DNA of 64,000 bases. Origin: a virus. The position numbers and the translations under genes were made by a program. The notes under the pieces were generated by a model. The model ran no database searches. It was not told where the DNA came from and worked only from the letters and a program-made list of their open reading frames with translations. Shown piece by piece: positions 41,093 to 59,482 of the stretch (position 1 is the first letter of the stretch; every line of letters starts with the position of its first letter). The DNA lies in UHGV virus genome UHGV-0277313. The stretch is one strand, 5' to 3'.

Positions 41093-41120
41093 AAAAATCT
41101 AATTGATTAAGGACACGCTA

Positions 41121-43391
41121 ATGAAATATCTAATTTTGCTTCGGGGTCTTCCTGGTTCTGGTAAAAGTTATTGGATAAAAGAAAACAAATTAGAAGATTA
41201 TACTATTTCTTCTGATAATGTTCGTTTGTTGTTTGCAACACCGTCTATTCCTTTTCAGGCTTGTTATAAGGATAGAGGAATTTCACAAAAGAATGACAAA
41301 GAGGTTTGGGATTTAATACATTCTTTAGTTGAACGTCGTTTAATGGAAGGCATGACAACTATCGTTGATGCAACACATTTGACTGTTAAGTCTATTAATT
41401 ATTACAAAAGCTTTTGTGCAAGTAATAATGTACGTTGTATCGTATTGGATTTTAATGTTAGCCTGGAAAGTGCTATTAACAATGATTTGTTAAGAAAAGG
41501 CACTTGTCGTTATGTAGGTTGTCAGATCATTAAAATAATGAATGACAAAAAAGAAGATGTGCCTAAATGGGTTGATTATACAACTGATAAAGAGCATGTT
41601 GTCAAGCTGTTTAATGACTGTATAGACGCGGTTGATTACAATGAGAAGTATGATAGCGTTGTAATCTTCGGTGATTTGCATGGTTGTTATGAACCTTTAA
41701 AACAGTGGTTTGACAAACATCCTGTTAACGACAAAACGAAATATATCTTTTGTGGTGATTATGAAGATAGAGGTATTCAACATAAAGAGTTGTTTGATTT
41801 TCTTTTAGAACATCGCAAAGATTTTAATTTCAAATTCTTAAAAGGCAATCATTCTTGTCGTTTGTTACAGATAGCTGAACGTGATAAAGATTCTATTCGT
41901 TATCCGGAATACTATAATACGTTTGAACAAATGAAAGATTTTGATCCTATTGAACTGAAAAAGTTTGTTCGGGATCAAGATGATATGGTTTACTTTACAT
42001 TTCGTAATAAAAACTTTTGTGTATCACATGGTGGTATTAGTTGTCTTCCGACTTTAAAGTTGAATAGTAGTGAATACATAAAAGGTCACGGAACATATCA
42101 AATGTCAAATGATGTGGATAATGATTTTATGTTCAATTCTTCTATTGAAGGTGATAACATTTATCAGGTACATGGTCATCGCAACGTTACAAATAGTGAT
42201 ATTCAAGTATGTGATCGTTGTTTTAATTTGGAAGGAGGAGTTGAGTTCGGTGGTGAATTACGAATTCTTCAGATTGATAGTGAAGGTAAATGTATACTGG
42301 ATTCTATTAGAAATACTGTTTTTAAAGAATTGACGGAAGGTTCGAAGATTGTCAATGAGTTTAAGTATTCTTCATTGATTAGAAAGTCGCAAAACCCAAA
42401 CGGTATTAGTTCTTATAACTTTAATCGAGACGCTTTTTTTGATAAAAAGTGGAATAGCTTGACGTGTACCGCAAGGGGCTTGTTTGTATATGATGATACA
42501 GATAAAGTTGCAGCAAGGTCTTTTAACAAATTCTTTAATTTGAATGAAACTAGTACTTCGAAATTAGATTATATTGTGAAGAATTGGTGTGGCGTCACGA
42601 ATGTTTATAAAAAGGAAAACGGATATTTAGGTATCATTTCTGTTGATGTTCGTGATAACAGTTTCATTTTAGCATCGAAAAGTCGTACTGATAAAGAGTT
42701 CGCAACGAATATTAGTAGAATCTTTAATGAAAAATTGTCAGAAGAACAACAGAACAATTTGAAGAAATGGTTATTGAAGGATGTGGATAAACATCAAGGT
42801 AATGCATATTCTTTAGTTGTTGAAGTAATTGATCCAATTAACGATCCGCATTTTGTTCAATATGATAAAGATGATATTGTTGTTTTGGATGCATTCGTTA
42901 ATGACTTTAATGAAAAAACTGTTTCATATGATGAACTGATTTCATTACATGACTTAACAGGTTTGACAATAAAAGAAAAGATTTGTGAGACGTGTGATCT
43001 AAAGACAACAATTCATGAACTTTGTAATACCAAAGATCATATCGAAGGATTTGTTTTAGAAGGGCATGATTATAATGGCAAGACTGTTCGTGTGAAGATT
43101 AAAACAAAATGGTACTTGATGTGGAAGAAGTTCAGATCAACAGGTGATTTCGATGAACGATTCGACATTAAAGATTTTTTGACAGTTGAACAACAAAAAT
43201 ACGCCAAACAAATCTATAGCCGAACAAAACAATTGATCGATTTACGTAATGGAGATACAGTTAGTACTGATGGTTCAATAAATGTAAATGATGAAATTGA
43301 CAATTATGTTATGTTTATTTATAGAGATTTGATTGGTGATTCGCGGATTAATATACCGAAAATTATACAATCTGTTGAAAATGTGAAATAG
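41121..43391 (+). CDS. polynucleotide kinase / metallophosphatase / ligase-like RNA-repair enzyme (CthPnkp-like)
   Basis: P-loop LLRGLPGSGKSYW; calcineurin-type phosphatase motifs VVIFGDLHGCYEPL, FCGDYEDRG, KGNHS; ligase-like motif I YKKENGY in the C-terminal third. Confidence 0.7.
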   Translation: MKYLILLRGLPGSGKSYWIKENKLEDYTISSDNVRLLFATPSIPFQACYKDRGISQKNDKEVWDLIHSLVERRLMEGMTTIVDATHLTVKSINYYKSFCASNNVRCIVLDFNVSLESAINNDLLRKGTCRYVGCQIIKIMNDKKEDVPKWVDYTTDKEHVVKLFNDCIDAVDYNEKYDSVVIFGDLHGCYEPLKQWFDKHPVNDKTKYIFCGDYEDRGIQHKELFDFLLEHRKDFNFKFLKGNHSCRLLQIAERDKDSIRYPEYYNTFEQMKDFDPIELKKFVRDQDDMVYFTFRNKNFCVSHGGISCLPTLKLNSSEYIKGHGTYQMSNDVDNDFMFNSSIEGDNIYQVHGHRNVTNSDIQVCDRCFNLEGGVEFGGELRILQIDSEGKCILDSIRNTVFKELTEGSKIVNEFKYSSLIRKSQNPNGISSYNFNRDAFFDKKWNSLTCTARGLFVYDDTDKVAARSFNKFFNLNETSTSKLDYIVKNWCGVTNVYKKENGYLGIISVDVRDNSFILASKSRTDKEFATNISRIFNEKLSEEQQNNLKKWLLKDVDKHQGNAYSLVVEVIDPINDPHFVQYDKDDIVVLDAFVNDFNEKTVSYDELISLHDLTGLTIKEKICETCDLKTTIHELCNTKDHIEGFVLEGHDYNGKTVRVKIKTKWYLMWKKFRSTGDFDERFDIKDFLTVEQQKYAKQIYSRTKQLIDLRNGDTVSTDGSINVNDEIDNYVMFIYRDLIGDSRINIPKIIQSVENVK

Positions 43392-47845: not shown

Positions 47846-47903
47846 AATAAAAATGATAAAAAAGAATCATAAATTTATTTTTAACATCACATAAAAAAAG
47901 TTC

Positions 47904-47932
47904 TTGACATTCAGCATTACTTTTGCTAATTT
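47904..47932 (+). promoter_or_regulatory. strong promoter copy A (AAAAAGTTCTTGACAttcagcattacttttgcTAATTT)
   Basis: Near-identical copy at 49461; A-rich UP-like tract, TTGACA, 17-nt spacer. Confidence 0.55.
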
Positions 47933-48236
47933 AGTTTTTGTCAGGTGATGAACTTGACAGCGAGTTTTTAGAAATAGTGAATATGATTTCCGTACTTAAG
48001 GAAAACCTCATCGTGGTTGTACGGTCTAGTATCTGTTTTATCAATGTTTCTTCATTGTGTTCATCTCCAAAATTATCCAAAATAAAACAGTGAAGCTAAT
48101 TTCCTTTCTTCTTCATAAAACAGCCTTGTCGTGGCGAAGAAGCTCTAGTAGTTTACGTTTGTAAACGAAGCTAATGTTTTACTCTTATTTTAAGGCAGCA
48201 GATGCAATTGTTTGCATGCAGTTGCATCTGCATTTA

Positions 48237-48328
48237 GGAAATGTGGATGAGTGGTTTAAATCAGCGGTTTGCTAAACCGTCGGGCATAGAAATATGTCCC
48301 GCAAGTTCGAATCTTGCCGTTTCCGCCA
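48237..48328 (+). tRNA. tRNA-Ser (anticodon GCT), class II
   Basis: Acceptor GGAAATG/CGTTTCC; anticodon loop TTGCTAA; long variable arm CGGGCATAGAAATATGTCCCG; T-arm GCAAGTTCGAATCTTGC; discriminator G then CCA. Confidence 0.8.
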
Positions 48329-48355
48329 AAAGTTTCTGTAGAAGATACAGGTTAC

Positions 48356-48449
48356 GCCTTCGTCGTTCAATGGTTAGGACACTCGGCTTATACCCGAGCG
48401 AGCAGCTGATATCTGCGAAATCACAGTTCGAATCTGTGCGGAGGTACCA
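48356..48449 (+). tRNA. irregular tRNA-like gene (94 nt), identity unresolved
   Basis: Good T-arm CACAGTTCGAATCTGTG and an acceptor with G-U pairs ending ACCA; two candidate anticodon hairpins (CTCGG-CTTATAC-CCGAG and GCAG-CTGATAT-CTGC); does not fold as a canonical cloverleaf. Confidence 0.35.
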
Positions 48450-48481
48450 ATTTTAATTTGCATTTTGAAAGTTGGGTAGAT

Positions 48482-49312
48482 ATGCAATATTTGACAAAGC
48501 CTTTTGTAAAATGGGTCGGTGGTAAAAAACAACTTCTTGAGAAATTAGGATCTTGTATGCCCAAAGATTACAATCGTTATTACGAACCTTTTATTGGTGG
48601 TGGAGCTTTATTGTTTAATGTTCAACCTAAAGATGCTGTCATTAATGATACAAACAGTCAGTTAATAAATGTTTATAATCAATTAAAAACAAACATTGAA
48701 GATGTTATAAAAACGGTGAATACTTTAGATAGTAAAATGTGTAATGAAGATTATTATCTAGAAATTCGTGACCGTTATAATTCAAAAATCAAATCAAAAG
48801 AGTTAGATGCTGAATGTGCTTCTTTAATGATTTGGGTTAACAAACATTGTTTTAACGGGCTATATAGAGTCAATTCAAAAGGGTTGTTTAACGTCCCGTA
48901 TAACAATAAAGTAAATGGCGTTTCAATTGATGAATGTAATTTACGAAACATCAGCAATTATTTAAATTTAAATAAAGTTGATATTCGTGAAGGTGATTTC
49001 GAAGCCGCTTGTTCCGATGTGAAAAAAGGCGATTTGGTATATTTTGATTCGCCGTACGTTCCAGTAAGTAAAACAGCAAACTTTACAAATTATACAAAAG
49101 ATGGTTTTAGTTTAAATGATCACAAACGTTTGGCTAAATTGTTTTGCACTCTGGATAGTTTAGGTGCGTATATTATGTTAAGCAATAACGATGTTCCTTT
49201 GGTTCATGAGTTGTATAGTCAATTTAATGTGACTTCTGTTGATGCCCGTCGTGCTGTCAATAGAGATGCAACAAAAAGGAAAGGTAAGGAAGTAATCGTT
49301 ACCAATTTTTGA
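48482..49312 (+). CDS. dam: DNA adenine methyltransferase (Dam-like, alpha class)
   Basis: KWVGGKKQLL, FxGGG motif YYEPFIGGGALLF, catalytic DSPY; the ORF may extend to TTG 48458. Confidence 0.85.
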   Translation: MQYLTKPFVKWVGGKKQLLEKLGSCMPKDYNRYYEPFIGGGALLFNVQPKDAVINDTNSQLINVYNQLKTNIEDVIKTVNTLDSKMCNEDYYLEIRDRYNSKIKSKELDAECASLMIWVNKHCFNGLYRVNSKGLFNVPYNNKVNGVSIDECNLRNISNYLNLNKVDIREGDFEAACSDVKKGDLVYFDSPYVPVSKTANFTNYTKDGFSLNDHKRLAKLFCTLDSLGAYIMLSNNDVPLVHELYSQFNVTSVDARRAVNRDATKRKGKEVIVTNF

Positions 49313-49325
49313 TTAAACAGATAGT

Positions 49326-49412
49326 GGATGGGTCGCATAGCGGCAATTGCTGGGGACTGTAAATCCCCCGCCTGAAAAGGCTTCGTTGGTTCGAGTCCAA
49401 CCTCATCCACCA
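49326..49412 (+). tRNA. tRNA-Tyr (anticodon GTA), class II
   Basis: Acceptor GGATGGG/CTCATCC (one G-U); D-arm GCATAGCGGCAATTGC; anticodon stem GGGGA/TCCCC with loop CTGTAAA; long variable arm; T-arm GTTGGTTCGAGTCCAAC; ACCA. Confidence 0.75.
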
Positions 49413-49460
49413 AAAATTTTTAAAAAGATGAAAAAAAGTTCTTGACAATTAGCATTACAT

Positions 49461-49489
49461 TTGCTATAAATAATACATCAAGACGAGAT
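49461..49489 (+). promoter_or_regulatory. strong promoter copy B (AAAAAGTTCTTGACAattagcattacatttgcTATAAA)
   Basis: Duplicate of the 47904 promoter; TTGACA N17 TATAAA. Confidence 0.55.
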
Positions 49490-50335
49490 ATTAAACATTG
49501 TAAATAAGAAACAGCCAAATGAAAAGGCCTTTACGTGGCTTGGCTGATAAGTAGCTTTCTTCATTTAGTGAATTTAGTGAAACCAACTTTTTCATTGTTT
49601 AATATCTCATATAACTTGAACTGTATAAAAACAGTACGGCTGTATAGACATAAGATGATTCTGCCTATATAGTTTCCGTCATCAGTCTGATTACCTTTTC
49701 GTGGTTTGACGGATAAGTAGCGACCTTCAACTGTTTATTTTCAAGAGCGAAGCATTGATTATAAACTGTCGCGAAACTAAAGTTCTGACATGTAACAGTT
49801 GATGAAATTTCCGCATCGGTTGTTACAATATGATAATGGTCTTGACGAATTATAACCCCAATTTAACGTACGGTAATGCGGGAAAACATAGTTGTTATAA
49901 TGACTCAAGATCTTTCAAGCTATTTGTTTAGCCGTTTTCAGGAAAGTTTTGGGGTGAAAAACTTCCTTGTTATTATTTGTAAAATATGCCTTGATTTTTA
50001 ATTTTCTATAACTTCTAATAAAGTAGAATAGGAAATTTTAAAAGGTTTTAAAATTAAGTTGGAAGATTTGTGATTTTGTTATACAGAGTGACTGAATCAA
50101 TGGAAGAAAGAGGTCGTTTTGTTTAGATTGCAAACCCAATTTGATTTTAAATAAAAAGAAAATCTGAGTGAAATAAAGGTTTTCTCCTTAGAAATAAGGT
50201 TCTTTTTAGACTTAAGTCTTCTAAATTTATATAAAGTTTATATTTGTTTAGATAACTGAGTTATTTTATCGCAGTTTATTGTTTTAGACTCAAGTTCTAA
50301 ACATTTCAGATCGAATCTGAATGCTGCTTCTAATT

Positions 50336-50400
50336 CAATCCTTTATTCAAGGATTGTTTCCGGTGATTCGCGATAGTCAGTACCGGTACAAAATCTGACA
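50336..50400 (+). ncRNA. two-hairpin structured RNA element, copy 1
   Basis: CAATCCTT-TATT-CAAGGATTG, then TTTCCGGTGA-TTCGCGATAGTCAG-TACCGG...CTGACA; copy 2 at 54415 keeps both stems through compensatory changes. Confidence 0.4.
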
Positions 50401-50718
50401 TCTAGATAAATTGAAATATGTTTATCTGTTAGGTTCCTAAAACCTATCATCAAAATTTAGGCGTCAAGATTGTTTCTTGCAGGTTTCTTGTTCACCTGAC
50501 AAAATGAACAAGCAGTGCAAACGCTGTAGAATCGTTGGCGGGTTTGTCGTTGCCCATATACCGACCAGAAATGATACTTGCTGATATTCTGATAGAAGTT
50601 CCGCTAGACTGATGATCTTCATGTAAAGTGTGTCAAGCTTTACATTATGACATTCTTAATTGAATGCTGTCAAAGGTTTTGTGTATTGTACCTGCGTAGC
50701 AAAACAATACACTTTTAA

Positions 50719-50794
50719 GCCGAAATAGCACAGTTGGTAGTGCAGTTGATTTGTAATCATCAGGTCGTGGGTTCAAATCCCTCTTTCGGCACCA
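50719..50794 (+). tRNA. tRNA-Thr (anticodon TGT)
   Basis: Acceptor GCCGAAA/TTTCGGC; D-arm GCACAGTTGGTAGTGC; anticodon loop TTTGTAA (one stem mismatch); T-loop TTCAAAT; ACCA. Confidence 0.65.
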
Positions 50795-50995
50795 GTTTAT
50801 TTAGGTGTTTTGCAAAGTTTAATCTCATTCGCTCGTTAAACTTTCCTTTCAAAATTCTCATCATCTCCAATTTTGATAAATGCAAAACAGTTCAATTCGT
50901 TTGTTTACCTTCACGTGGTTTTGAATGTAAGTAACTTAAGGTTTTTAACAACTGCCGTAGATCGTTTACTTAAGTGAAACTAAATAACAAACAAT

Positions 50996-51082
50996 GCCCT
51001 TATGATGGAATCGGTAGACATAACAGATTCAGAATCTGTTGGAATTACTTCCGTACCTGTTCGAGTCAGGTTAGGGGCACCA
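50996..51082 (+). tRNA. tRNA-Leu (anticodon CAG), class II
   Basis: Acceptor GCCCTTA/TAGGGGC; anticodon stem ACAGA/TCTGT with loop TTCAGAA; long variable arm; T-arm ACCTGTTCGAGTCAGGT; ACCA. Confidence 0.8.
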
Positions 51083-51085
51083 TTT

Positions 51086-51179
51086 GGGTGGTTGGCAGAG
51101 TCTGGCTTATTGCAACGGTCTTGAAAACCGTCGAACATAGGAATATGTTCCGTGTGTTCAAATCACACACCACCCGCCA
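51086..51179 (+). tRNA. tRNA-Ser (anticodon TGA), class II
   Basis: Acceptor GGGTGGT/ACCACCC; anticodon stem ACGGT/ACCGT with loop CTTGAAA; long variable arm CGAACATAGGAATATGTTCC; T-arm GTGTGTTCAAATCACAC; GCCA. Confidence 0.8.
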
Positions 51180-51185
51180 ATTTAT

Positions 51186-51278
51186 ACCCCGTTGTAGTCA
51201 TGGTGACCATCAATTGAATGCCTATAGCTCCAGTCAATTGGTACGGGAATGCTGTTCGAATCAGTCTACGGGGTGCCA
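51186..51278 (+). tRNA. irregular tRNA-like gene (93 nt), anticodon arm not resolvable
   Basis: Perfect 7-bp acceptor ACCCCGT/ACGGGGT + G + CCA and T-loop GTTCGAATC, but the T-stem is displaced by one nt and there is no canonical anticodon hairpin; contains near-palindrome TCATGGTGACCATCA. Confidence 0.3.
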
Positions 51279-51353
51279 ATTTTTTAAACAAGCCTTTACA
51301 CGCGTCATGATGACGATAGTCCAATATACATTTGAAGGCTTTTTTAAAAATTG

Positions 51354-51443
51354 GAAAATGACTGAGTGGTTATAAGGTGGGTGACTTGGCGAAGTGCCAA
51401 TTAACTTAAAATGTTAAGACGTAGGTTCGAATCCTGCTTTTCC
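51354..51443 (+). tRNA. irregular tRNA-like element (T-arm GTAGGTTCGAATCCTGC, acceptor TGGAAAA/TTTTCCA, no encoded CCA)
   Basis: Canonical T-arm and a 7-bp acceptor, but 22 extra nt between acceptor and the candidate anticodon hairpin TTAAC-TTAAAAT-GTTAA; probably a pseudo-tRNA or non-canonical tRNA. Confidence 0.25.
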
Positions 51444-51470
51444 AATTTTTTCAATTTTCTTGAATTTTAA

Positions 51471-51544
51471 ATAAGCGTAGCACAATGGTAGTGCATCGGT
51501 CTCCAAAACCGAGGATGAGAGTTCAATTCTTTCCGCTTATGCCA
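51471..51544 (+). tRNA. tRNA-Trp (anticodon CCA)
   Basis: Acceptor ATAAGCG/CGCTTAT; D-arm GCACAATGGTAGTGC; anticodon stem TCGGT/ACCGA with loop CTCCAAA; GCCA. Confidence 0.85.
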
Positions 51545-51560
51545 TTTCCTACATTTTTAA

Positions 51561-51637
51561 CGGGGTTTAGCGCAGTCTGGTAGCGCGCCTGCCTTGGGAG
51601 CAGGAGGTCGAGTGTTCGAGTCACTCAATCCCGACCA
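51561..51637 (+). tRNA. tRNA-Pro (anticodon TGG)
   Basis: Acceptor CGGGGTT/AATCCCG; D-arm GCGCAGTCTGGTAGCGC; anticodon stem CCTGC/GCAGG with loop CTTGGGA; T-arm GAGTGTTCGAGTCACTC; ACCA. Confidence 0.85.
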
Positions 51638-51824
51638 TATTAAGAATTCAGGTGAAAGCTAGTGAGTAACCTGTATCGTTTAACCCCACTGTGCGTCAAC
51701 AGGGTTTTGTACAGACAAAAATGAAACTGTATCGGGACGGAAAGTGTCCGATTATGCCGAAATGCCGACGGGCAAATCGTAAAGTTGTGGACCCGGTGGA
51801 CCACATTAAAAACCCACCTACCGT

Positions 51825-51847
51825 TTCCTTTGAAAAAACAAGGATTG
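51825..51847 (+). repeat. TTCCTTTGAAAAACAAGGATTG repeat, copy 1 of 3
   Basis: Other copies at 52149 and 52348; forms hairpin CCTT-TGAAAAACA-AGG. Confidence 0.5.
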
Positions 51848-52148
51848 TAAGATTGGATGATTTAGACTTATGATGAAACAGAATTAGGTTTTATTGATTA
51901 AGCATCAAATAAATCTTTGGTTCGTTCGGGACTTAGTCCGCACATTGAGGGATTAACGTCAGGTTAATGTACTTAGTAAGCCAAAGATGAATTGAAAAAT
52001 TCTGATATAAAACGTATTTTGGTTTTATAAATGTTCTTTTGGTGCTTAATCAATAGAAAATGGAGCATATTGTAATTTCTGAGAATGATATCTAATTAGA
52101 AATGAAAATACCCTAGGGTTCGGTTGAATATGTGATAGAACTCACCAT

Positions 52149-52169
52149 TTCCTTTGAAAAACAAGGATT
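52149..52169 (+). repeat. TTCCTTTGAAAAACAAGGATT repeat, copy 2 of 3
   Basis: Followed by a second CAAGGATTG. Confidence 0.5.
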
Positions 52170-52347
52170 AAGAGCAAGGATTGCCCTGAGATATTATGAA
52201 GGCGTATTATGAGGAAAAGAAACATAATGTGCTTTTATAATAAAATAAGGGTGTGGTTTAATTATATAGGGTAAATTGGTTCTTTTCCAACTCATTTATT
52301 ACTAGGATTAAAATCAGGTAGTGTATCCTGCCTCGTCCTTTTAAAAA

Positions 52348-52369
52348 TTCCTTTGAAAAACAAGGATTG
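52348..52369 (+). repeat. TTCCTTTGAAAAACAAGGATTG repeat, copy 3 of 3
   Basis: Exact motif. Confidence 0.5.
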
Positions 52370-52585
52370 AAGTTTGCATTTGGTGTAACTTTGGTTAAAT
52401 AGTCTTAAGCCTATGCGCAAGGTGTTTTAAGAAACGTTTGACGGGGGGCTATAGCAGATTCTAGAGGCTGTAAATAGTTTGTAGCATACTTAGAGTGGAT
52501 TTTAAGAGGTTATGTGTGAATCATAGGTGCAAAAATAAATTTTTAAATAAAGTAATCATTTAGATGTGATTACACTATTTGTCAG

Positions 52586-52614
52586 GCTGTTCGAGTGTTC
52601 GAGTCACTCAATCA
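52586..52614 (+). pseudogene. tRNA-Pro 3'-half fragment (duplicated T-arm region)
   Basis: GTTCGAGTGTTCGAGTCACTCAATC matches the tRNA-Pro T-arm at 51608-51632 and then diverges (..ATCATGA instead of ..CCCGACCA). Confidence 0.45.
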
Positions 52615-52625
52615 TGACTAACTAT

Positions 52626-52700
52626 TCCGTGATAGCTCAATGGTAGAGCAATCGGCTGTTAACCGATTGGTTGTAGGTTCGAATCCTACTCACGGAGCCA
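52626..52700 (+). tRNA. tRNA-Asn (anticodon GTT)
   Basis: Acceptor TCCGTGA/TCACGGA; D-arm GCTCAATGGTAGAGC; anticodon stem ATCGG/CCGAT with loop CTGTTAA; T-arm GTAGGTTCGAATCCTAC; GCCA. Confidence 0.85.
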
Positions 52701-53114
52701 TTGATATCTTATAAATGTTTTGGTTCGTGTGTGTGGTTCCAATTAATCAAAAAATGCACTGCTTGAGCTTAATCGGGCTGTAATTAAGTAACCTTTGGAA
52801 GACGTGGTTCGACTTCCCCTATAGAGGTGATATCGGTGAATGTCCTCGGCTCTTTCCTTCAAGAGTGGCGTAAATGTAAGTAACGATTACAAAAGGATGA
52901 TGACAATAATTTGTCCGTGAGTGATTCCCAAAAGAAGTACGTTAAGCTTCTAAACTTTAAAACATTTCTTTGAGTGCTAACATGCTCAATGAAACAAGGT
53001 TTTAACAGTTTCCTTGTAAATCTTAAACTGTCATAGTGCTTCATCTTATAAAGGTTTTTTGTTGTAATTCCAAAGATGAAGTTTGTTTTTTAAACTGAAC
53101 TAAGAGGTCTGGAA

Positions 53115-53462
53115 ATGATCGTTAAAAAAATAACAGAACGTACCGTTTATCCGTCGTCATATGAATCTTTATCTTTGCCAGAAAAGAGCGATATTGATTC
53201 ATTTATTAAGCAGTCAATTAAGGTTGCTTATAAGGCAGGAAAAACATTTCGTGTAGGTGATTATGTTGGAAGGAAAGCTTTTCCTGATTGGTCAAATACA
53301 CCTTTGGATCCGATTTATCAATATCATAAAAGAATTGGTACAACTGATCCAACGAAACAGGCAGGTATTGATGTAGGTCATCTGTTTAAAAATGCAATGG
53401 ATGAAAGTCCATTTTGTTTTGAAATTCATAAAGGGCATGTAAATTACTATACGCCTGTTTAA
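53115..53462 (+). CDS. hypothetical protein inside the tRNA island
   Basis: 115-aa ORF after AAGAGGTCTGGAA. Confidence 0.5.
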   Translation: MIVKKITERTVYPSSYESLSLPEKSDIDSFIKQSIKVAYKAGKTFRVGDYVGRKAFPDWSNTPLDPIYQYHKRIGTTDPTKQAGIDVGHLFKNAMDESPFCFEIHKGHVNYYTPV

Positions 53463-53545
53463 ACAGTGTGAGTTTGATGCAACAGCGTTTATTCCTAACG
53501 CAAATTCCATTCTTTTCAGTTCTGTGGTTGCTAAAACTGAATAAT

Positions 53546-53632
53546 GCACTTGTGGTGGAATAGGTAGACACGCAAGCTTGAGGTGCTTGTGAAAGAAATT
53601 TCGTGCTTGTTCGAGTCAAGTCAGGTGCACCA
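53546..53632 (+). tRNA. tRNA-Leu (anticodon GAG), class II
   Basis: Acceptor GCACTTG/CAGGTGC (one G-U); anticodon stem CAAGC/GCTTG with loop TTGAGGT; long variable arm; T-arm CTTGTTCGAGTCAAG; ACCA. Confidence 0.75.
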
Positions 53633-53676
53633 GTTTAGCAACACGAGAGACCAGCTTCCTTGTTTCTTGTTTGTTG

Positions 53677-53714
53677 CCAGCCAATCGACGAAGGCTGTAG
53701 TTACAGATTTCTGG
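53677..53714 (+). repeat. CCAGCCAAT..CGAAGGCTG..GTTACA element, copy 1 (about 45 nt downstream of tRNA-Leu)
   Basis: Copy 2 at 54843 sits about 40 nt downstream of tRNA-Arg; the CGAAGGCT core recurs inverted at 55012. Confidence 0.45.
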
Positions 53715-54379
53715 TTTTCGGTGAAATCGAAAAGTCAAATAACAATCAGTTTATTTGGCTGGTTGTTTCATAATAGGTTGCGGGTGATGAACCGATCCTT
53801 TCTATAAAAAGTAAGGGTGGGCTAATAAAATGCTTCCTTGATTGGAAGTTAAGCAAATCGATGGTTATCATCTTCAATCCCGCAATCGCGATTGTAATTT
53901 TATCGTCCCACCTTTATTTTACAAGTTTCTTGGTTTTGCTAAGCTTATTTAAAGGGCTTAGAGACCTTTTATCGCGGATTAGTGAAATGGTATCTTAAAA
54001 CTTCACACAAACCAGAGAAAAATAATGCAAGGTGAATAAAATTTTTCTTGCTTTTAGATTCTGGTTATGTTACTTTGATTAAGTTGATGGCGGATATGAG
54101 ATATTAAAGCTGTGCCATATATTTCTGGTAATGTCCGTTATTGATACCAGTCTTTGGTGGTTATCAGATATGCCCCAATATGAGTAAGGCTATTGATTGG
54201 TTACTTTGATTGGCATTTGAAAATACCGTAAGTTGTTCGGCAATGTGTGCGACAGTAACTGAGTTTAACCACATCAGGAGAGATGAGCTTGCTCATCGAT
54301 ATAGTCCCTGATACTGGAAAAGCCGATTTCATTGGTTTTCATTGAAATTGGTAACTATCACATTAGGCTCTTACCTTAA

Positions 54380-54408
54380 AATTACCAGTTCGAGTCTGGT
54401 GTCCGCCC
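54380..54408 (+). pseudogene. tRNA 3' fragment (T-arm ACCAGTTCGAGTCTGGT + acceptor GTCCGCC + C + CCA) without a matching adjacent 5' half
   Basis: Canonical T-arm and CCA; the only complementary 5' acceptor (GGCGGAT) lies about 300 nt upstream at 54087. Confidence 0.35.
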
Positions 54409-54414
54409 CCAATT

Positions 54415-54482
54415 CAATTCCTTACATGGAATTGTTTCTGGTAAGTTCGCGCGATAGTCAGTACCAGAACCTAAACCTGACA
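54415..54482 (+). ncRNA. two-hairpin structured RNA element, copy 2
   Basis: CAATTCC-TTACAT-GGAATTG, then TTTCTGGTAAG-TTCGCGCGATAGTCAG-TACCAG...CTGACA; covaries with copy 1. Confidence 0.4.
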
Positions 54483-54726
54483 AAGTCTTAGCATTGACTT
54501 TAAACTGCTTAACCTTATGCATAGAGATAGGATAAATGCTTCAGACTTTAAGCTGTCATCTTAAAGGGCTTTGCAAATTTACCGTAAATTGCCAGAAAAG
54601 AAGAGGCTGTGATAGTGTCTAGAATTCTTCCGATTGTGAGTTCGATAATCTCATAGATTTGACCGTCCATCACTTTTAAAGTGGCTCTCTTAGCTGGTTC
54701 TGAGTGGTCATAAAACCAGCTTTAAT

Positions 54727-54803
54727 GATTCCATAGCTCAACTGGATAGAGCCACAGACTTCTAATCTGTAGGTTGCAAGTTCAAGTCTTGCTGGGATCG
54801 CCA
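54727..54803 (+). tRNA. tRNA-Arg (anticodon TCT)
   Basis: Acceptor GATTCCA/TGGGATC; D-arm GCTCAACTGGATAGAGC; anticodon stem ACAGA/TCTGT with loop CTTCTAA; T-arm GCAAGTTCAAGTCTTGC; GCCA. Confidence 0.85.
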
Positions 54804-54842
54804 AAGTTTCTTTTTGTGATGATCTTACCTTTCGGGTCATCA

Positions 54843-54882
54843 CCAGCCAATAAGCGAAGGCTGATGTTACAACTTTCTCAAG
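54843..54882 (+). repeat. CCAGCCAAT..CGAAGGCTG..GTTACA element, copy 2
   Basis: See copy 1 at 53677. Confidence 0.45.
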
Positions 54883-55111
54883 TGTGAAAGTGCAGAGCTT
54901 GTTCGTGGATAAGGTTATTGCTTATTCCATACTATGTATGACAGGTTTTCCTTTGCTCCTTTAAAAATCGATCAATGAAGGTGTCAGCAGAATGCTTGTA
55001 TGTACTACAAGTTAAGCCTTCGTAAAAAGGAAGAAACATTGCTTTAGCATGCCTGTCATAGCGATGGTAATTTTGCCATCCCTTCATTGATCGTGAATAT
55101 TATTTTCGGGA

Positions 55112-55185
55112 TCGACTAAAGGTAGGTCAACACACTTTGACTGTGTTAATGTTGGTTCAAATCCAGCTCCCGAAACCAATTTTTA
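55112..55185 (+). tRNA. tRNA-Gln (anticodon TTG)
   Basis: Acceptor TTCGGGA/TCCCGAA; anticodon stem ACACA/TGTGT with loop CTTTGAC; T-arm GTTGGTTCAAATCCAGC; ACCA. Confidence 0.75.
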
Positions 55186-55531
55186 ATTATTCCTTGATTT
55201 GTAGTCAGTTTGATTAAAGATCGAGGAATTTTTAATTTGTGGAGAAATAAAATGAGAAAAAAGAAAATAGTAAAGAAACGTGACTTGATAGCAAAAGATT
55301 TAATGACAAATAAATATCGACAACGGATAGTTCCAAATAAGAAAAAGAAATTAAAGAAGTTTGATTGGAAAAAACAAAAAGGCGATAACAGAATCATTGA
55401 TATGGTTGATGATTCTGTTATCGCCTTTTTTATTTATTTGAATCCACGTTTTAAAAATGTGTTGAATGCTTTTTGTTTTTCTTTTTTATTCTTAATAAAA
55501 TAAAGAACTGAAATCTGTTTGATGGATAAGT

Positions 55532-58346: not shown

Positions 58347-59482
58347 TAAAAGTTTATAAGACCAAATTGAATTTAACATATAATTAGCGTAAGCAATTTA
58401 TGGCTAATGCTGGTTGTGCTCGTTGGGCTTATAACTATGTTGTCGGTAAAGAAACTGAATCTTTAAAGAGCAATAAATATATTCCTGTTAATGATTTAAG
58501 AAAAGAAGTTACAAAATTAAAACAAACAGATGAATTAAATTGGTTATTTAATTATGATTGTGATATTGTTAAGCAATCAATGAAAGATGCTGATAAAGCA
58601 TTCAGAACATTTTTTAAGAATAAACAGAAATTTGGATTTCCTAAATTTCATTCTAAACATTCATCTAAACAATCTTTTTATGTTGATGGTGTTAAATTAA
58701 AAGTTTGGTCGAATAAAATCAGAGTACCAAAAGTAGGTTATGTTAAGTTATATGAAAAAGATTATATTCCAACGGATGTTAAAAGTTATACCAATCCAAG
58801 AATTTTATTTGATGGAATAAGTTGGTATATTTCTGTTGGTGTAAAAGAAGATGATCCTAAAAAGATTACAAATAATGTTGTTATTGGCATTGATTTAGGA
58901 TTAAAGGAATTAGCAACATGTTCCAATGGACTTGTTATCCATAATATATCCAAATCAAAAAGATATAAAAAGTTAGAAAAGAAATTAAAAAGACAACAAA
59001 GGCAAATGTCAAGATCCTTAGAAAGGAATAAGATTGGAAAGAAATTTGTCAAGACAAAGAACTTTGAGAAATATAGAAAGAGATATTTAAAGACAAGTAT
59101 TAAGATGAATAATCTGAAGATAGATTATTTCAATAAATCTATTGTAGATATCATGAAAACCAAGTGTTGTACAATAGTTCTCGAAGATTTAGCTGTAAAG
59201 AATATGCAGAAAAATAGAAAAATATCTAATGCTTTTCAGAAATCTGCTATTTCTCAGTTTAGATCAAGATTGATTCAGAAAGCTGAAATGCTTGGTGTCA
59301 GTATATCTATCGCAGATAGATTCTTTCCAAGTTCAAAGATGTGTTCTCATTGTGGACATATTAAAAAAGATCTGACATTGTCAGATAGAATATATCATTG
59401 TGATATATGTGGGTTTGAGGTTGATCGTGATTTAAATGCTGCGATCAATCTCAAGAATACCGTGAGATCCACGGGAATTTAA
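58343..59482 (+). pseudogene. tnpB: IS605/IS200-family tnpB (RNA-guided nuclease) interrupted by an in-frame TAG at codon 15
   Basis: MIKVYKTKLNLTYN-TAG(58385)-RKQFMANAGCARWAYNYVV... in a single frame; the TAG aligns with the conserved Q of the TnpB N-terminal KAYKFRLYPTKEQ box; downstream RuvC motifs IGIDLG and ...CSHCGHIKKDLTLSDRIYHCDICGFEVDRDLNAAINL; no tnpA nearby. Confidence 0.7.

Follow-up and report, generated by a model that had tools for sequence, protein, structure and literature searches.

HDV-like ribozyme folds, orphan tRNA-derived elements and mobile-element insertions in the tRNA array of a jumbo phage

Besides eight tRNAs, the tRNA region of phage T4 encodes two stable RNAs that resemble tRNAs (species 1 and 2). 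Long variable arms are a feature of class II tRNAs (Leu, Ser, Tyr) and of allo-tRNAs, and among mobile elements IS608 and ISDra2 are TnpB elements of the IS200/IS605 family, whose miniature derivatives are known as PATE or MITE. Theta ribozymes lie directly 3′ of phage tRNAs and cleave in vitro (Kienbeck et al. 2024, PMC10879173). These systems are the closest to the locus described here, an island at positions 47,904 to 55,185 of a 64,000-nt stretch of the virus genome UHGV-0277313 (the whole stretch being called the window), and we report its gene content, its folds and their covariation, the history of insertions in it, and its turnover among lineages. The island lies in the genome of a jumbo phage of ~300 kb from gut metagenomes and, as a phage tRNA array, is of a known type, with several new variants in it: a putative C-starting subfamily of HDV-like ribozymes, a conserved tRNA(UAU) whose extra arm resembles an anticodon loop, and miniature TnpB-type elements with a target in tRNA D-loops. 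As a whole it is best explained, with a probability that we put at about 0.75, as a tRNA and non-coding-RNA operon of this phage whose irregular loci are by-products of turnover and insertion. An earlier note on this DNA had listed 11 canonical tRNAs, four irregular tRNA-like loci and a tRNA-Pro fragment. Of those irregular loci, one had been misfolded, one is a gene split by a transposon, one is an insertion scar, and two are orphan elements derived from tRNAs; overall they are most likely by-products of fast cassette turnover and of mobile-element insertion in the array.

The window has a G+C content of 33.5%, and its small open reading frames (ORFs) are densely packed and read well in the standard code. 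An exact lookup of the 115-aa protein encoded in the island led to the same island on contigs of 277–309 kb, including NCBI LR756497.1. The lineages compared were L001, L133, L136, and L137, and the strains were L039, L043, L044, and L046; L001 is a 314-kb IMG/VR contig whose Dam protein is 87% identical to that of the window. Dam homologues were found at 33 metagenomic loci, the island being present only in the L001 phage. Megablast of the island against GenBank phages returned only generic tRNA-Asn and no close deposited phage, and neither the 115-aa ORF nor a 430-aa downstream ORF gave matches as IMG/VR queries. Some 4.5 kb of the island either is non-coding and structured or comes from mobile elements, which the earlier note had missed, and cassette content varies among strains that are otherwise 97–99% identical. 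Coordinates of all features are collected in Table 1.

Intact tRNA genes and variable cassettes

Between 48237 and 55178, ARAGORN called 13 tRNAs, every one of them on the + strand, and RF00005 supported 12 of the 13 at 48.2–76.3 bits (the gathering score is 29 bits, and we count as tRNAs only full-length cloverleaves). These 12 are the 11 canonical genes of the earlier note, which both programs recover (RF00005, 48–76 bits), plus a gene at 48356–48446, and CCA is encoded in all of them, as had been noted for the 11. Codon usage in the window fits this tRNA set: AUA occurs 16 times per 1000 codons, and AGA, ACA, and UCA are the top Arg, Thr, and Ser codons. The 12 tRNAs would serve the A/U-rich codons of the phage (AUA, AGA, ACA, UCA, CAA, AAY, and UAY). 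The earlier idea of suppressors is unlikely, with no stop anticodons in the island and a window that reads well in the standard code. Stop-codon recoding was also considered and dropped: read-through of TAG adds almost no ORF coverage, and read-through of TGA or TAA is likewise without signal. The “odd tRNAs” of such islands are of mixed origins, and the label of suppressor needs evidence. A tmRNA, which the earlier note had proposed to look for, was matched in the island by neither ARAGORN nor Rfam (RF00023), and the Rfam scan of the island found no family at threshold besides tRNA. Within one tRNA-Leu gene the anticodon switches among lineages, being CAG in the window (50996–51082), UAA in L001 (L001:12232–12319) and L133 (L133:6203–6289), and CAA in L136 (L136:4712–4798).

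The twelfth gene has the anticodon UAU and an extra arm of 23 nt. The earlier note had called it irregular and without D or anticodon arms, allowing that a covariance model might assign such loci to ordinary tRNAs; that is what RF00005 does here, at 50.7 bits. Because the model aligns the locus end to end, we conclude that it had been misfolded by hand: the acceptor is GCCUUCG/CGGAGGU, the D arm GUUC-AAUGGUUA-GGAC has a 4-bp stem, the anticodon arm CUCGG-CUUAUAC-CCGAG has a 5-bp stem, and a normal T arm, A73 and CCA complete the cloverleaf. Five lineages carry the gene (the window type, L001, L133, L136, and L137), with compensated changes in its acceptor between them (U4-A69 to C-G, U5.G68 to C-G, and C6-G67 to U.G); it is an intact gene under selection. 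It would presumably read AUA as Ile.

The extra arm, CGAGCAGCUGAUAUCUGCGAAAU, is invariant in an island block that is ~83% identical between the window and L001. It forms a hairpin with a 4-bp stem (GCAG/CUGC) and a 7-nt loop, CUGAUAU, which we take to resemble the anticodon loop of tRNA-Ile(GAU). Among the loci that we fetched, five other phage tRNA-Ile(UAU) genes are 75–80 nt long and have no extra arm; a pattern search of IMG/VR found the extra-arm form in L001 only, and a literature search found no description of a tRNA(UAU) with such an arm. A class II tRNA would have a long variable arm, a D stem of 3 bp, and an anticodon for Leu, Ser or Tyr; here the long arm stands with the anticodon UAU and a D stem of 4 bp. 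That the invariant arm is a functional device, either a second GAU-type “anticodon loop” used as an identity or modification element or a sign that another amino acid is charged, seems to us improbable. If true, it would point to a new structural class of tRNA in jumbo phages. The charging and decoding of a conserved tRNA(UAU) with an unprecedented extra arm can be assayed. In another phage tRNA array, an 88-nt tRNA with the anticodon GCA has a long variable arm (L125:1074–1161, − strand), a second class-II-like tRNA with an anticodon other than Leu, Ser or Tyr.

The slot from tRNA-Ser(UGA) to tRNA-Asn is hypervariable. It holds irr1, irr2, Trp, and Pro in the window; L133 has irr1, Gln, and Pro there, L136 has Met, and L001 has nothing but Pro. 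The earlier suggestion that tRNA genes decay in the island is borne out by these per-lineage cassettes, by a split tRNA(CAU), by a tRNA-Pro scar, and by a tRNA-Tyr destroyed by a TnpB element in L133.

The elements irr1 and irr2 are those irregular loci of the earlier note whose description holds: both have T arms (GTTCGAATC) and paired acceptor stems and lack a canonical anticodon arm, and RF00005 gives no match for irr1 and 20 bits for irr2, against the threshold of 29. In irr1, an acceptor of 7–8 bp is followed by G and CCA, the D hairpin has a stem of 4 bp and a loop of 3 nt, the anticodon arm is replaced by a 9-bp stem whose loop has 16 nt, the T arm has 4–5 bp, and 1–2 extra nucleotides precede the acceptor 3′ strand. 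It has no 7-nt loop on a 5-bp stem, and a search of 306 nt found no RF00005 match at E up to 10. In irr2, the acceptor UGGAAAA/UUUUCCA can be extended to 13 bp, and no CCA follows; it has a Ser-like D region, a hairpin with a GGCG tetraloop at the position of the anticodon arm, then a 5-bp arm with the loop UUAAAAU, and a T arm. The score of 20.0 bits is reached only by taking the extra-arm hairpin as the anticodon arm. By covariance model the nearest tRNA types are Asn for irr1 and Ser for irr2.

On balance, we lean slightly toward irr1 and irr2 being tRNA-derived cassettes, decaying or non-decoding, that are perhaps still excised as tRNA-like RNAs. A possible but less probable reading is that they are selected, functional tRNA-like RNAs, which could act as decoys or sponges for anticodon nucleases of the host or for enzymes that modify tRNAs, as punctuation for RNase P or, in the case of irr1, as a precursor whose enlarged anticodon loop is cut and religated. 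Three observations count against decay: irr1 is 100% identical in two lineages whose neighboring sequence differs by 2.5% (P ~0.1 by chance), its acceptor stem is perfect and its CCA kept, and the irr2 acceptor differs from that of the tRNA-Gln(UUG) that occupies the same slot in L133 and shares its terminal bases by two fully compensated pair changes. The identity of irr1 and the compensated pairs of irr2 hint at selection rather than decay. Acceptor and T arms are intact in both elements, which suits a functional RNA; the absence of a 7-nt anticodon loop, the RF00005 scores under threshold and the 1–2 additional nucleotides that separate the T stem of irr1 from its acceptor stem do not. Both elements are missing from L001 and L136, and irr2 also from L133, a restriction to certain lineages that speaks for cassette turnover over lasting function, as does the lack of homologues: covariance models of irr1 and irr2 run on 825 kb of other phage tRNA arrays returned ordinary tRNAs only, at no more than 34 bits. 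A search for relatives with an exact 38-nt irr1 pattern gave no match. The two single-nucleotide differences of irr2 among near-identical strains pull in opposite directions, A51399C adding a pair to the long hairpin and the other, in one strain, removing the GG of the D-loop. A function would also be in keeping with a kinase-phosphatase-RNA ligase repair enzyme encoded 4.5 kb upstream, and with ARAGORN in its relaxed intron mode (80% threshold), which alone reads irr1 as a tRNA-Asp(GUC) with a 17-nt insert; this mode is at noise level and carries no weight, because it makes 108 calls in the window, nearly all of them false, and we keep the intron-containing tRNA-Asp as a low-probability idea.

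Other identities were considered for irr1 and irr2. YrlA (RF02553) gave no match on 51170–51475 at E up to 10, and the YrlA-like RNAs of L132 and L086 have another topology; a tmRNA was rejected, with no match in Rfam; and for the loops as antisense seeds, no complementary site of at least 9 nt was found in the window. Elsewhere, a tRNA-like element of ~60 nt without a D arm (L001:11497–11560; acceptor GCGGAA/UUCCGC, T arm UCAG-UUCAAUU-CUGA), called by neither ARAGORN nor Rfam, occupies the L001 site of the window's 298-nt module. Sub-threshold YrlA matches of 30–42 bits with a clear permuted tRNA-like fold (L132:2125–2238, L086:3133–3246, and L056:1–89) lie in phage tRNA arrays that also carry the hepatitis delta virus (HDV)-like family described below.

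Ribozyme-like folds, promoters and proposed processing

The spacers of the island hold five HDV-like double-pseudoknot folds (RzA to RzE), and these and two promoter copies had been missed in the earlier note. Five copies of the motif CCTNNNCGTGG are present in the window, where 0.18 would be expected; all are on the + strand (48006–50918), and GAAR-C-NAA follows each of them. The fold runs from the P1 and P2 5′ strands through P3 (NCC/GGN) with the loop L3 (U-NN-NCGU) to the P1 3′ strand and one P1.1 pair, and then through AAGUAG/UAGUAG, P4, and GAAR-C-NAA to the P2 3′ strand. A strict descriptor of it found 0–1 matches per shuffled window.

Covariation was assessed in an alignment of the core of the five window copies and their L001 orthologues, ten sequences in all. 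In this alignment 95% of cells pair, compared with 58% in shuffles and 36–47% when the partners are slid. Covariation scores 1.03, as against 0.27 for shuffled sequences, and both sides have changed in 16 of 18 pairs, statistics that are somewhat favored by construction, and to that extent count against the reading that follows, because the P1 5′ strands were located by complementarity. Each of the 14 pairs of P1 and P2 has changes in both strands, the P1.1 pair is found as U-A, A-U, C-G, and G-C, and RzA has compensatory changes of P1 and P4 in L001. The nested double pseudoknot P1/P1.1/P2/P3 that characterizes HDV is thus present with covariation. The active-site positions are invariant in all ten aligned copies: U1, C5, and G6 of L3, and in J4/2 the C that precedes NAA.

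The family extends beyond this phage. A 15-base pattern hit 87 IMG/VR loci, at which 41 unique elements pass the full fold test; these 41 were selected with the active-site constraint, so invariance there is built in. Each of the 12 family loci scanned with Rfam is a tRNA array, and most of them lie on large phage contigs (100–280 kb). The HDV families of Rfam (RF00094, RF02682, and others) reach at best 18.5 bits in the window (RF02682), against a threshold of 44, and on the 12 other family loci they gave no match at E up to 1. One member, 72 nt long, lies ~30 nt downstream of a RAGATH-14 RNA in L072; RAGATH-14 RNAs (RF03145, 157–183 bits) were seen at L072:1514–1685, L103:918–1088, and L048:1078–1284.

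We read the five folds as members of a putative subfamily of HDV-like ribozymes, a new variant that mostly starts with C and is linked to promoters or tRNA 5′ ends. Mutagenesis of HDV has pointed to a G.U wobble as required for HDV-type catalysis. At the cleavage site RzE has G.U and the other four folds have C-G, and among the 41 family members the first P1 pair is C-G in 23, G.U in 9, G-C in 6, and A-U in 3. Self-cleavage is therefore the weakest step in our account, and it may be slow or absent, because the G.U pair is missing from four of the five copies. It is accordingly conceivable, if unlikely, that the folds do not cleave themselves and are nuclease-resistant 5′ structures or protein-binding modules of HDV topology, as the C-G start of 4/5 window copies and 23/41 family members, the single Watson-Crick pair in P1.1, and the lack of a significant Rfam HDV model would allow. 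Such structures would leave the invariance of all HDV active-site positions in the ten aligned copies unexpected, and the core is the same as that of theta ribozymes, which cleave in vitro (PMC10879173). On the ribozyme reading, HDV-type ribozymes in phage tRNA operons would have a role beyond the described cutting of 3′ trailers. A widespread subfamily that mostly does without the G.U cleavage-site pair also makes the catalytic rule testable on natural variants.

RzA and RzB follow the promoter copy at 47904, and RzC and RzD follow the copy at 49442. We infer the steps of transcription, ribozyme cleavage, and tRNA release from the sequence. Two sigma-70-like promoters at these positions (TTGACA-17-TAnAAT-like) would drive long + strand transcripts. 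The folds would then probably cut at their own 5′ ends, by analogy with the HDV family, thereby removing leaders, separating modules, and leaving 5′-OH and 2′,3′-cyclic phosphate ends, and host RNase P and 3′ nucleases would release the 12 CCA-encoding tRNAs, with irr1 and irr2 possibly released by RNase P. A 762-aa fusion protein encoded at 41103–43391 (+), 4.5 kb upstream, has polynucleotide kinase (AAA_33), metallophosphatase, and T4 Rnl1-type RNA ligase domains, and because these are combined in one protein we read it as a Pnkp-like RNA repair enzyme. It may heal the ribozyme ends or repair damage by anticodon nucleases. A Bacteroidetes-type reading of the promoters was dropped, since an ordinary TTGACA-17-TATAAA promoter also accounts for these boxes and no host has been established.

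Insertions, scars and other features of the island

The fourth irregular locus of the earlier note, 54380–54408, does have the T-arm and acceptor piece described for it. It is not a free-standing fragment, being part of a longer 3′ part of a tRNA gene that has been split by an insert of 365 nt. An intact tRNA(CAU) stands between Leu-GAG and Arg-UCU in L043 and L044, and contiguous alleles score 53.1 (L043), 52.5 (L136), and 48.7 bits (L133) on RF00005. Alignment with an intact allele places 365 extra bases in the D-loop of the window gene, whose 3′ part alone scores 21.8 bits over model positions 9–63, so that the split gene falls short of a tRNA. The split copy is also damaged, with its anticodon changed from CAU to CUU and a G-C pair of the anticodon stem weakened to G.U, and the split copy of L039 and L046 has an additional A x C mismatch in the T stem.

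The same element occurs at other sites in two lineages, L133 and L136, with 92–95% identity. The L133 copy lies between RzC and RzD, at a non-tRNA site that is empty in the window (TGTAT^AAAAAC), and the L136 copy lies in the D-loop of a tRNA-Thr paralogue (junction AAAGGTAT^TGCAG). All junctions read GTAT^CTTAAAA...GGTAACTAT^, with a right end ...AACTAT. Its ends, CTTAAA-ACTTCACACAAACCA on the left and GATATAGTCCCTGAT...TTTCATTGAAATTGGTAACTAT on the right, are matched by those of a 1.3-kb TnpB element, L133:10618–11926, which encodes a 397-aa TnpB-type protein with a Cas12f1-like TNB domain. Shared ends, GTAT^ at three sites, the absence of target duplication, and the differing sites make the insert a miniature TnpB element of IS200/IS605 type, and from its differing positions among strains we infer that it is mobile. 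On sequence grounds, the tRNA(CAU) locus is a gene inactivated by this IS200/IS605-like element. The element would insert after (G/T)GTAT, a sequence that occurs in tRNA D-loops, and with its target there tRNA genes have therefore been struck twice independently, Met in the window and the Thr paralogue in L136. TnpB-type miniature elements with a D-loop target would thus actively remodel the tRNA repertoires of huge phages.

It is very improbable that the insert is instead a self-splicing intron and tRNA(CAU) still functional. The 5′ exon ends in U, the insert holds GAUAUAGUCC, which resembles a group I S element, and its size fits small group I introns. However, exact excision allows no G at the 3′ boundary (the possible 3′ ends are C, T, A, T or T), a search of 561 nt found no Rfam intron at E up to 10 and no RF00028-type core, a copy of the element is found outside any tRNA gene, the full-length TnpB element has the GATATAGTCCC box and both ends as its own, and the interrupted copies carry damaging mutations.

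Other TnpB elements were seen as well. In L133 a different one (L133:3239–4527), whose protein has 402 aa and an HTH domain, has taken the place of the central part of tRNA-Tyr, of which the first 8 and the last ~18 bases are left. In the window, a TnpB gene at 58400–59482 (+) has OrfB_IS605 and Cas12f1-like TNB domains; it belongs to a family other than that of the miniature element, and its flanks are without the CTTCACACAAAC and GGTAACTAT ends. Another decayed tRNA(CAU) 3′ half lies at 50284–50331 of the window, right after the 298-nt module and ahead of the first copy of a pseudoknot-like motif (see below); it has an anticodon arm UUAGA-CUCAAGU-UCUAA and a T arm UUCAG-AUCGAAU-CUGAA and is ~70% identical to L043:1901–2020.

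The copy of the tRNA-Pro T arm reported in the earlier note is real. In L001, Pro and Asn are separated by 5 nt, in the window by ~950 non-coding nt, and the fragment and Asn together align to the Pro 3′ end and Asn of L001, with the intact Pro aligning separately. Because of this alignment we take the fragment for the old, displaced 3′ end of Pro, and it persists in L136, where the intact Pro has been lost. The insertion between Pro and Asn consists of modules bounded by the repeat TTTCCTTTGAAAAACAAGGATT and variably present among strains. We thus read the fragment as an insertion scar.

The 298-nt module modA is present after tRNA-Pro and absent from the 49971–50268 site in L039, L046, and L136, and it occupies 8555–8852 in L039. 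The ends of modA match those of a 1.4-kb element of L039 (14345–15749) that encodes a 366-aa protein, which has no Pfam match and a faint ...IEDL... resemblance to TnpB. Directly 3′ of tRNA-Pro, window positions 51653–51748 have post-tRNA counterparts of 74–81% identity in L086, L102, L107, and L132, which suggests another conserved post-tRNA element, the four contigs being otherwise unrelated.

That the irregular loci are a chance resemblance to tRNA parts in AT-rich spacer has a negligible probability: the RNAfold z-scores of irr1 (−0.4) and irr2 (−2.0) are unremarkable, yet the exact T-loop box GTTCGAATC stands with terminal helices of 7–13 bp on the + strand inside a tRNA array, and the Pro and Met fragments line up with intact genes nucleotide by nucleotide, which excludes chance for these pieces.

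Table 1. Features of the island by position in the window
Feature	Position	Strand	Basis and remarks
Promoter-like repeat 1 (TTGACA, 17 nt, TAATTT)	47893-47932	+	92%-identical 36-nt direct repeat of 49431-49466; conserved in L001
HDV-like fold RzA	47990-48106	+	P1 CCGUAC/GUACGG; P2 AAGGAAA/UUUCCUU; P3 ACC/GGU; L3 UCAUCGU; J4/2 GAAGCUAA
HDV-like fold RzB, in tandem with RzA	48108-48181	+	Fold; weak RF02682 match, 18.5 bits
tRNA-Ser(GCU)	48237-48328	+	ARAGORN; RF00005, 54.9 bits
tRNA, anticodon UAU, 23-nt extra arm	48356-48449	+	RF00005, 50.7 bits (48356-48446); conserved in 5 lineages
Dam-type N6-adenine DNA methyltransferase gene	48482-49312	+	PF02086, E = 4.9e-62; inside the island
tRNA-Tyr(GUA)	49326-49412	+	ARAGORN; RF00005
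Promoter-like repeat 2 (TTGACA, 17 nt, TATAAA)	49431-49470	+	Sequence; repeat of copy 1
HDV-like fold RzC	49512-49594	+	P1, P2, and P3 all covary with the L001 orthologue
HDV-like fold RzD, P2 with two U.U mismatches	49676-49789	+	P1, P2, and P4 with compensatory changes relative to L001
298-nt mobile non-coding module modA	49971-50268	+	After tRNA-Pro instead in L039, L046, and L136
tRNA-Thr(UGU)	50719-50794	+	ARAGORN; RF00005
HDV-like fold RzE, first pair G.U	50890-50992	+	Ends 3 nt before tRNA-Leu(CAG)
tRNA-Leu(CAG)	50996-51082	+	ARAGORN; RF00005
tRNA-Ser(UGA)	51086-51179	+	ARAGORN; RF00005
irr1, tRNA-like element	51186-51278	+	Fold; no RF00005 match; identical copy in L133
irr2, tRNA-like element	51352-51445	+	Fold; RF00005, 20 bits; window lineage only
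tRNA-Trp(CCA)	51471-51544	+	ARAGORN; RF00005
tRNA-Pro(UGG)	51561-51637	+	ARAGORN; RF00005
~950-nt non-coding insertion between Pro and Asn	51638-52590	+	Missing in L001
Displaced, decaying 3′ end of tRNA-Pro	52591-52618	+	93% identical to 51608-51635
tRNA-Asn(GUU)	52626-52700	+	ARAGORN; RF00005
115-aa ORF, function not assigned	53115-53462	+	Inside the island
tRNA-Leu(GAG)	53546-53632	+	ARAGORN; RF00005
5′ part of split tRNA(CAU), acceptor 5′ strand to D-loop ...GGTAT	53973-53993	+	Alignment with intact alleles
365-nt miniature TnpB-type (IS200/IS605-like) element after GGTAT in the D-loop	53994-54358	+	Same element elsewhere in L133 and L136
3′ part of split tRNA gene, anticodon CAU changed to CUU	54359-54408	+	Contains 54380-54408
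tRNA-Arg(UCU)	54727-54803	+	ARAGORN; RF00005
tRNA-Gln(UUG)	55105-55178	+	ARAGORN; RF00005

Directly after tRNA-Gln, a very basic protein of 83 aa (MRKKKIVKKRDLIAKDLMTNKYRQR...) is encoded at 55252–55503 (+); it forms the 3′ border of the island in all lineages and has 64 metagenome homologues and no Pfam family. Two repeated RNA motifs were also observed. The first, pseudoknot-like, lies at 50332–50400 and 54411–54482 of the window and at L001:11560–11640, its second copy starting right after the CCA of the split tRNA(CAU). It is built of a hairpin, UUU, a second hairpin with the conserved loop UUCGCG(CG)AUAGUCAG, and a downstream CUGAC able to pair with GUCAG, and the stem of the second hairpin covaries (CCGGU, CUGGUA, and CAGGUA). 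The second, of three hairpins, lies at 53640–53730, 54815–54900, and L001:12765–12860, and starts within ~10 nt of the 3′ ends of tRNA-Leu(GAG) and tRNA-Arg(UCU). Its first hairpin is variable and compensated (GCAACAACC/GGUUGUUGC versus GUGAUGAUC/GGUCAUCAC), and a conserved CAGCC-AAUNNNNGAA-GGCUG hairpin comes second, ahead of the third. Neither motif fits HDV, hammerhead, twister or pistol ribozymes when compared by eye with their consensus sequences.

Comparison with described systems

The five HDV-like folds share their core, ACC|U|NN|NCGY|GGU ... CUAA, with theta ribozymes (published as ACC|T|CC|ACGC|GGT...CTAA). Like theta and minimal HDV-like ribozymes, they have a P3 of ACC/GGU or GCC/GGC, a J4/2 of C-U/N-A-A, and a P2 that closes the fold (PMC10879173), and like theta ribozymes the family members occur in phage tRNA regions. 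Unlike theta ribozymes, their first P1 pair is mostly C-G, and P1.1 consists of one Watson-Crick pair plus a U.U or C.C mismatch instead of two pairs. They also have a conserved AAGUAG/UAGUAG stretch and often a real P4 (up to ~70 nt) before GAAR-C-NAA. Theta ribozymes have no P4 and a cleavage site within a few nucleotides of the 3′ end of a tRNA, whereas the folds in the window are placed behind promoters or in front of a tRNA, an upstream tRNA 3′ end is either lacking or no closer than 95–99 nt, and only 1 of the 41 members is directly 3′ of a tRNA.

With YrlA RNAs, irr1 and irr2 share T and D arms without an anticodon loop; however, in the circularly permuted YrlA the acceptor is closed and the termini lie on the anticodon side, and the acceptor ends of irr1 and irr2 are open. 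The tRNA(UAU) shares with class II tRNAs (Leu, Ser, Tyr) and allo-tRNAs a long arm between the anticodon and T arms. Unlike class II tRNAs, it has a class I body, the anticodon UAU, and an arm made of a 4-bp stem and the 7-nt loop CUGAUAU.

The 365-nt element resembles the IS200/IS605 TnpB elements and PATE/MITE (IS608, ISDra2) in its insertion 3′ of the short fixed target GTAT, the absence of target duplication and the right end in the related sequence CTAT, and like PATE/MITE its short non-coding copies share both ends with a TnpB-encoding copy. Unlike IS608 and ISDra2, its target lies in tRNA D-loops (GG-UAU), and TnpA was not seen here. As a whole, the island is like the T4 tRNA region (8 tRNAs and the tRNA-like stable RNAs, species 1 and 2) and the arrays of huge phages in the co-orientation of its genes and their match to codon usage, and, like T4-type clusters, it has tRNA-like RNAs embedded in it and an RNA repair kinase/ligase nearby. 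Unlike T4-type clusters, ~60% of this island is non-coding spacer with ribozyme folds and modules derived from mobile elements.

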